Positions 27,339 through 27,910 of a stretch of 64,000 bases of DNA are shown one piece after another. Within the stretch, counting starts at the first letter, position 1. Every line of letters begins with the position of its first letter. The notes below the pieces were generated by a model. That model saw only the letters and a list, made by a program, of their open reading frames with translations, made no database searches and was not told where the DNA came from. The position numbers and the translations under genes are program-made. The DNA lies in assembly GCF_988242995.1 (NCBI RefSeq), contig NZ_OZ547043.1, one strand, 5' to 3'.

Positions 27339-27700
27339 CGTAACTTACTCATTATTCTTACATTGACGACTAAGCTGCGGGCAAAGTAACGCCTTTCCGG
27401 GTGTGAACCGATGGCCTCGTGTCTAGTCGCGTCGCCAACCTCACGGTTATCGTCAGCTCAAAGAGGCGCAGAGTGTCGGTTGCCCGTTTTTCATGCGGAA
27501 AAACAGCGCAATTATCAAAGAAACAGACTGGGTATTACTCTCCAGAAATATTTCCATCTACCGGTAAGGACTGCAACCCGCAGCCCGCTAACTGCCTGAA
27601 AGATCAATACGTCTTACGCCATTGCTGCGTGGATGATCGGTCGGGCAAAATGGGTTATTCCGTAAAATTTCTTGTTTTAACAAGGATGGACACGGAAACG
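27339..27700 (-). promoter_or_regulatory. rne 5' untranslated leader (autoregulatory, structured) - approximate extent
   Basis: Long non-coding gap upstream of rne; extent of about 360 nt taken from established knowledge of the rne leader, not mapped from sequence. Confidence 0.5.
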
Positions 27701-27910
27701 GCCTCATTATTCCACTGCAAGCCTTGTTATAGCAAGATGACTTTTACCATTTATCACCCGCTTACTCACAGTTTTTTCACTTCTTGCTGGTGATTGGTTT
27801 AATAACCATCAATAAAGTGATCACGTAGTGAAGTAATAAGGTGCAAAACTAAATATAAGCATAGAAAAATGAGTGGCGCGAATCCTGTTGGCTAATTAGA
27901 ATCGCCCACC

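Follow-up and report, generated by a model that had tools for sequence, protein, structure and literature searches.

The window analysed here is a stretch of 64,000 nt that belongs to Escherichia coli. Of 5,426 complete E. coli genomes compared, all but one (5,425) match its segment 27200..28000, 5,398 of them with an identity of at least 99%. Two genes of the ORF list frame the region. The rne coding sequence (RNase E, 1061 aa) occupies 24153..27338 on the minus strand, with its ATG at 27338..27336 and K-12 b1084 at the matching position, while rluC extends from 27911 to 28870 on the plus strand. The genes are divergent and leave a gap of 572 bp (27339..27910), in agreement with the non-coding interval of about 570 bp upstream of rne that had been proposed in a sequence-only reading of the window. 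Compared to K-12 the gap shows three differences only (at 27826, 27849 and 27907), and both the rne leader and the overlapping open reading frame discussed below are identical to their K-12 counterparts.

Homologous loci were collected by scanning one genome per species for a 17-nt motif of the hp2 loop of the rne leader. This yielded 120 loci, nearly all of them from Enterobacterales. Four of the 120 genome matches to the pattern are chance hits outside the locus (L014, L046, L048 and L119). At 107 Enterobacterales loci rne and rluC likewise point away from each other, the gap between them measuring 552-808 bp. One of the collected records is labelled Martelella alba (L120) and exhibits a typical enterobacterial rne leader together with the rne-rluC arrangement, closest to Acerihabitans. 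Martelella alba is an alphaproteobacterium, and this assembly is probably mislabelled or contaminated. Two MAGs named 'Proteobacteria bacterium' (L019 and L067) were noted alongside it.

The gap was evaluated for known RNA elements using cmscan. Rfam family RF00040 (rne5, 'RNase E 5' UTR element') matches 27363..27699 on the minus strand with 260.1 bits (E = 3.7e-82), the gathering score of the family being 180 bits. The match is full length and not truncated (model positions 1-333 of 333), shares the strand of rne and ends shortly before the rne start codon at 27338. Moreover the 5' end of the model coincides with the published length of the rne 5' UTR, which is 361 nt (27338 + 361 = 27699). 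The 5' UTR transcribed from the promoter P1 is placed at 27339..27699 (-) based on this Rfam 5' end, on a -10 element ending 7 nt upstream of it and on the published length. Judged by its sequence the leader is a member of RF00040 and represents the type locus of the family: it sits immediately 5' of rne in the same orientation, with the same hp1/hp2/hp3 architecture and the same 361-nt UTR, and no difference was found. The rne5 element is associated with the work of Jain and Belasco 1995, Diwa et al. 2000 and Schuck et al. 2009.

The leader consists of two stem-loops and a multi-branch domain. hp1 is the 5'-terminal stem-loop (27658..27698, -). It is present in the Rfam consensus structure and in the minimum free energy fold of the single sequence, and was not recovered in the RNAalifold consensus of 49 leaders from different genera. 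hp2 (27593..27647, -) comprises helices 1-3 and stands out by invariant columns in the 49 genera. Within its block GCAGCAATGGCGTAAGACGT (27609..27628) one base varies and the rest is invariant, whereby the invariance of the loop is partly by construction since the loci were gathered with a 17-nt pattern of that very loop. Helices 1-3 are 89-100% paired and show compensatory changes at 5 pairs. hp3 is the multi-branch domain (27372..27586, -), delimited by RNAalifold and by pair counts in helices 4-10. It is closed by a long-range stem of 11 bp (27576..27586 with 27372..27382) and contains sub-hairpins at 27481..27510 and 27407..27480. Pairing in helices 4-10 amounts to 93-100% across the 49 genera, with compensatory changes at 21 pairs.

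The RNAalifold consensus was derived from one alignment of the 49 leaders and holds 51 pairs, 26 of them with compensatory double changes. Standard pairs fill 96.0% of the cells at the 51 predicted pairs, as opposed to 30-43% if the partners are slid by 1-3 columns. Pairs with compensatory changes numbered only 6-14 in these slid controls. Moreover, none of 500 shuffles reached any of the five measures. The minimum free energy of the single leader sequence, -103 kcal/mol, is no better than chance when compared to shuffles (z = -0.66). Hence the case for structure rests on covariation, because thermodynamic stability alone does not distinguish the leader from shuffled sequences. The sequence-only reading had assumed a structured autoregulatory leader in this interval and had proposed to compare the conservation of RNA structure across Enterobacterales with that of the overlapping frame. 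The full-length Rfam match and the covariation in 49 genera bear out the first assumption, and on the RNA side of the comparison the structure is conserved.

Several leaders are interrupted by insertions. Insertions of ~89-128 bp are found after the position aligned to 27557 in L034, L055, L066, L069, L023 and L100. Further ones are located after 27659 (L030), after 27534 (L059) and, as a second insertion in L100, after 27668. Those sharing one site stem from Citrobacter youngae, Citrobacter sp. Cu233, Pseudocitrobacter, Kluyvera and strain RIT691. The insertions lie in a variable stem-loop of the hp3 domain near 27540..27560 and carry CTCACCCCAG(A/T)CACTT. This corresponds to the core of the ERIC2 primer in reverse complement, so that the insertions probably represent ERIC/IRU elements.

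The P1 promoter of rne (27706..27735, -) consists of the -35 element TTGCTA (27735..27730), a spacer of 18 nt including a TG and the -10 element AATAAT (27711..27706). It is the only site passing a sigma-70 scan within 27250..28000, and neither hexamer varies (100% identity) among the 105 Enterobacterales compared. A double DnaA box, TTATCACCCgcTTACTCACA, is located at 27751..27770, ~50-70 nt upstream of the P1 start; no strand is assigned to it. It was identified by its sequence and by its position, which coincides with the DnaA ChIP-seq peak '(yceQ) rne' at K-12 coordinate 1144772 (PMC11317965). The box pair is conserved to 87% in an Enterobacteriaceae-like set and to 56% across the whole order.

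Two additional promoter sites emerged from a relaxed consensus scan. A candidate upstream rne promoter is located at 27852..27879 (-), with the -35 element GCGCCA, a 16-nt spacer, the -10 element TATATT (27857..27852) and a predicted start at ~27845. With 8 of 12 consensus matches it is weak. The p2 promoter of rne reported by Ow et al. 2002 is said to lie ~145 nt upstream of p1, and the candidate presumably fits this position. Ow et al. 2002 reportedly describe a promoter p3 as well, and a further minus-strand start would be expected at ~27808. The second site is the putative promoter of rluC (27873..27910, +). Its -35-like element GTGGCG (27873..27878) overlaps the -35-like GCGCCA of the candidate divergent rne promoter, and its near-consensus -10 element TAGAAT (27897..27902) ends 8 nt ahead of the rluC ATG, which lacks a Shine-Dalgarno sequence. 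The block 27852..27910 is kept in nearly all of the 105 Enterobacterales and reads TTAAGCAyAg-AAAAAg-nAGTGGCGCTAT, followed by ~11 variable nt and then TAtTTAGAATCGC.

Judged from the letters, the conserved TAGAAT block lacking a Shine-Dalgarno sequence would fit rluC as a leaderless mRNA. Indeed rluC is listed among 'the known leaderless genes' of E. coli, next to rhlB, racR, hprR, dicA and cohE (PMC8794815). Owing to this listing, the placement of the -10 element and the missing Shine-Dalgarno sequence, transcription of the plus strand is predicted to start at 27911 and to lead away from the frame under study; the comparison with leaderless mRNAs concerns the neighbour rluC and not that frame. 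Taken together, the gap is a shared control region of two divergent genes, and functions at the nucleic acid level explain all of its sequence conservation.

A natural insertion into this region was found in E. coli O121 strain 201805972 (L123), a viable clinical isolate. Here an ISEc11 element (IS110 family) is located at ~27776, between the P1 region and rluC, and parts any upstream rne promoters from rne.

The open reading frame in question covers 27419..27793 on the plus strand, starts with GTG and would encode 124 aa. It shares frame and stop codon with K-12 yceQ (b1085, NC_000913 1144502..1144822, 106 aa), which is annotated as 'DUF2655 domain-containing protein YceQ', corresponds to 27473..27793 (+) and is located 135 nt from the rne ATG. 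The window ORF is the mechanical longest version of yceQ with 18 further codons upstream, and the correspondence suggested beforehand from the position is therefore correct. The suggestion that the ORF lies entirely inside the interval holds for the gap as a whole, but its last 94 nt (27700..27793) are located outside of the leader and cover P1 as well as the DnaA box pair.

The peculiar composition that had been remarked for the ORF is likewise seen in part. Cysteine (6.5% vs 0.8% in the real genes of the window) and histidine (3.2% vs 2.0%) are raised, whereas arginine is not enriched (6.5% vs 5.6%); serine, threonine, lysine and tyrosine are high, too. The absence of an obvious Shine-Dalgarno sequence was confirmed for the GTG at 27419. 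In contrast, the K-12 start at 27473 is preceded at a distance of six nt by AAGAGG (27461..27466), which is the complement of CCUCUU in the hp3 domain.

We compared the length of the ORF to chance expectation. The longest ORF in dinucleotide shuffles of the gap is 66 +/- 18 aa (n = 2000), with 3.7% of the shuffles reaching at least 106 aa and 1.1% at least 124 aa. Such a length is unusual for one region and expected several times across a genome. In 15 of 105 other species some ORF of at least 100 aa exists on the same strand of the gap, in various frames. Moreover, only 5.7% of the possible point changes in yceQ create a stop, and after the 4-8 substitutions that separate Escherichia genomes the frame would stay intact with P = 0.63-0.79. 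The yceQ frame is a moderately lucky run that was then frozen by the strong constraint on the opposite strand.

Another, far longer ORF is located antisense to the C-terminal half of rne (24165..25628, +). It comprises 487 aa, is highly repetitive and rich in arginine, phenylalanine and leucine. The biased composition of rne in that part almost certainly accounts for it.

Conservation of the yceQ frame was evaluated in an alignment of 106 gaps, with counts of open codons covering 105 species. A frame without stops or frameshifts is restricted to E. albertii and two genomes of the E. coli lineage, and these two have lost the yceQ stop codon (TGA to CGA). In-frame stops and/or 1-17 frameshifting indels are present in all genomes that are as distant as Citrobacter (89% nucleotide identity) or more so. 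Counted from the homologous GTG, at least 106 open codons are found in 4 of 105 species, namely three Escherichia and Citrobacter youngae, the frame of the latter being altered by three frameshifting indels including an insertion of 126 bp. A further 8 species have 80-105 open codons and 74 have fewer than 40. Salmonella, some Citrobacter and a few others retain a remnant of 82-88 codons from the same GTG, and the 82-aa 'DUF2655' database entries from Salmonella and Citrobacter are such remnants. Hence the conservation of the frame, the counterpart of the RNA comparison above, does not extend beyond Escherichia over its full length.

Substitution patterns were analysed against two Citrobacter sequences free of indels. 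For the yceQ frame dN/dS is 0.80-0.89, while the first 318 nt of rluC and rne, used as controls, give 0.015-0.039 and 0.007-0.017, respectively. The other plus-strand frames over yceQ show values of 0.59-1.85. 'Synonymous' divergence is 0.12-0.15 in yceQ as compared to 0.57-1.1 in rluC and 0.48-0.60 in rne. The 'synonymous' sites of yceQ are thus as constrained as the 'non-synonymous' ones, which is the signature of functional non-coding sequence. A bias toward synonymous substitutions or ribosome footprints had been named in the sequence-only reading as observations that would speak for translation. No such bias was found, and in the profiling data of Price et al. YceQ received no ribosome reads at all, neither in minimal glucose nor in the two further conditions covered.

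In addition, yceQ lacks the relaxed third position of coding sequences. Its three codon positions are conserved to 0.80/0.88/0.81 (permutation p = 0.06), compared to 0.93/0.98/0.58 in rluC at equal overall identity (0.83). Position 2 is slightly above positions 1 and 3 (p = 0.06) and the period-3 power ranked 7th of 160. This borderline periodicity was considered as coding evidence and rejected, as position 3 equals position 1 in conservation and the frame is broken in most species. The codon usage of yceQ gives a log-likelihood of -0.186 per codon and is below all of 195 in-frame windows, each 106 codons long, from 31 real genes of the analysed stretch (mean 0.376, minimum -0.028). Searches of the ORF against Pfam-A (E up to 1) and NCBIfam retrieved no family. 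AlphaFold2 predicted the 106-aa product with a mean pLDDT of 37.2 and no residue above 50, which is weak evidence given that a single sequence with no alignment was used.

The PGAP-annotated E. coli genomes have only rne and rluC annotated in this region. In NZ_CP025892.1 (L002) the locus tags jump from RS05355 (rne) to RS05365 (rluC), which suggests an earlier gene model between the two, presumably yceQ, since withdrawn.

In K-12, yceQ is listed as essential in Keio and PEC. Transposon insertions in yceQ are tolerated in one orientation only according to TraDIS data (Goodall et al.), and Price et al. report them as tolerated solely in the orientation able to drive rne. A strand-specific effect of CRISPRi at yceQ was explained by blocking of rne (Rousset et al.). 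Both Goodall et al. and Rousset et al. ascribe the 'essentiality' to the rne promoter and leader that reside inside yceQ. Disruption of the frame in some strains has been reported as well (Price et al.). Thus our analysis and three published studies treat yceQ as a non-gene, in contrast to the K-12 annotation.

It is very unlikely that yceQ is a real, young gene restricted to Escherichia that arose de novo on the antisense strand of the leader and is translated at a low level or only in certain conditions. Such a gene would agree with a frame that E. coli and E. albertii keep intact, that exceeds the longest ORF of 96-99% of the region shuffles, that is headed by the SD-like AAGAGG before the K-12 GTG and that is still annotated in the K-12 reference. 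However, with an identity of 97-99% within Escherichia the open frame is expected anyway at the probability given above, the codon usage is below that of every real-gene window, and the predicted structure has a pLDDT of only 37. The plus strand upstream of the ORF offers no promoter-like site in the sigma-70 scan of 27250..28000. Moreover ISEc11 disrupts the 3' end of the ORF in the natural O121 isolate, and two genomes of the E. coli lineage have lost the stop codon. The ribosome profiling of Price et al., with zero reads in three conditions, also speaks against translation, whereby few growth conditions are covered. In this reading, which we consider very improbable, the sequence of yceQ would be frozen by the constraint on the opposite strand and its translation confined to conditions outside those profiled so far.

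Equally improbable is a non-coding transcript of the plus strand ('excludon') that would act as an antisense RNA, base-pair with the rne leader and modulate the synthesis of RNase E. ExcludonFinder lists rne-yceQ among 16 divergent excludons of MG1655. This call however stems from an overlap of the rne transcript with an annotated gene, and the paper presents no locus-specific evidence for a plus-strand RNA. The lack of a plus-strand promoter-like site upstream in the sigma-70 scan weighs against an antisense transcript in the same way as against a gene, and the neighbouring plus-strand promoter of rluC fires away from the region. In addition the minus-strand structure fully explains the pattern of conservation.

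That yceQ is a member of a 'DUF2655' protein family, conserved in enterobacteria and kept by purifying selection, is effectively refuted: 32 database proteins do match, some of them named DUF2655 (Salmonella, Citrobacter, Lelliottia, Klebsiella, Enterobacter), but these homologues measure 68-156 aa, their N- and C-termini are unrelated and they have only the antisense-hp2 motif in common, nearly all genera carry frameshifts or stops, dN/dS is ~0.8-0.9, and current Pfam-A and NCBIfam hold no matching family. The only 'protein' motif shared across genera (26 residues) is the antisense reading of hp2 and of the 5' arm of the hp3 stem. AntiFam collects spurious ORFs such as those antisense to conserved non-coding RNAs. 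yceQ resembles this class by its motif derived from the wrong strand of a conserved RNA and by the ragged ends of its family.

We are therefore left with the interval as the leader and promoter control region of rne and with yceQ as a chance frame which is not translated and encodes no protein, a reading we hold with high confidence. Points that count against it are the length of the frame relative to the shuffles, the AAGAGG ahead of the K-12 start, the 82-88-codon remnants outside of Escherichia, the borderline excess at codon position 2 and the unremarkable minimum free energy of the leader. It agrees with the original suspicion that the ORF is leader sequence read in the wrong sense rather than a gene, given the loss of the frame, the dN/dS values, the missing periodicity and the non-genic codon usage. 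yceQ is a run without stops that arose by accident on the strand opposite to the leader and to P1. Its reported 'essentiality' is explained by the deletion, which removes the rne promoter and leader.

The control region itself is read as follows. P1 (27735..27706, -) starts the rne mRNA at ~27699, and the 361-nt leader folds into hp1, hp2 and the hp3 domain. According to published accounts, a stem-loop in the 5' UTR of rne is bound by RNase E and left uncut, which leads to faster cleavage elsewhere in the rne transcript and thereby to feedback control; the same accounts describe hp2 as the RNase E-binding sensor. Following this literature, RNase E bound to hp2 would speed up the decay of its own mRNA, so that the enzyme sets its own level. 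Upstream of P1 the region includes the DnaA box pair and probably weaker rne promoters, and at its far end the promoter of the putatively leaderless rluC mRNA.

Both the autoregulation by the leader and the status of yceQ as a non-gene are already known from earlier studies, and the case adds no new biology. Its meaning is mainly one of annotation hygiene. yceQ persists in the K-12 reference, in lists of 'essential genes', in recoding projects and in excludon catalogues, and because of this downstream analyses inherit what is almost certainly not a gene. Beyond this locus two general traps are illustrated: the opposite strand of a strongly conserved non-coding RNA can give the impression of a conserved 'protein family', and the phenotype of a deletion may belong to an overlapping promoter and leader.
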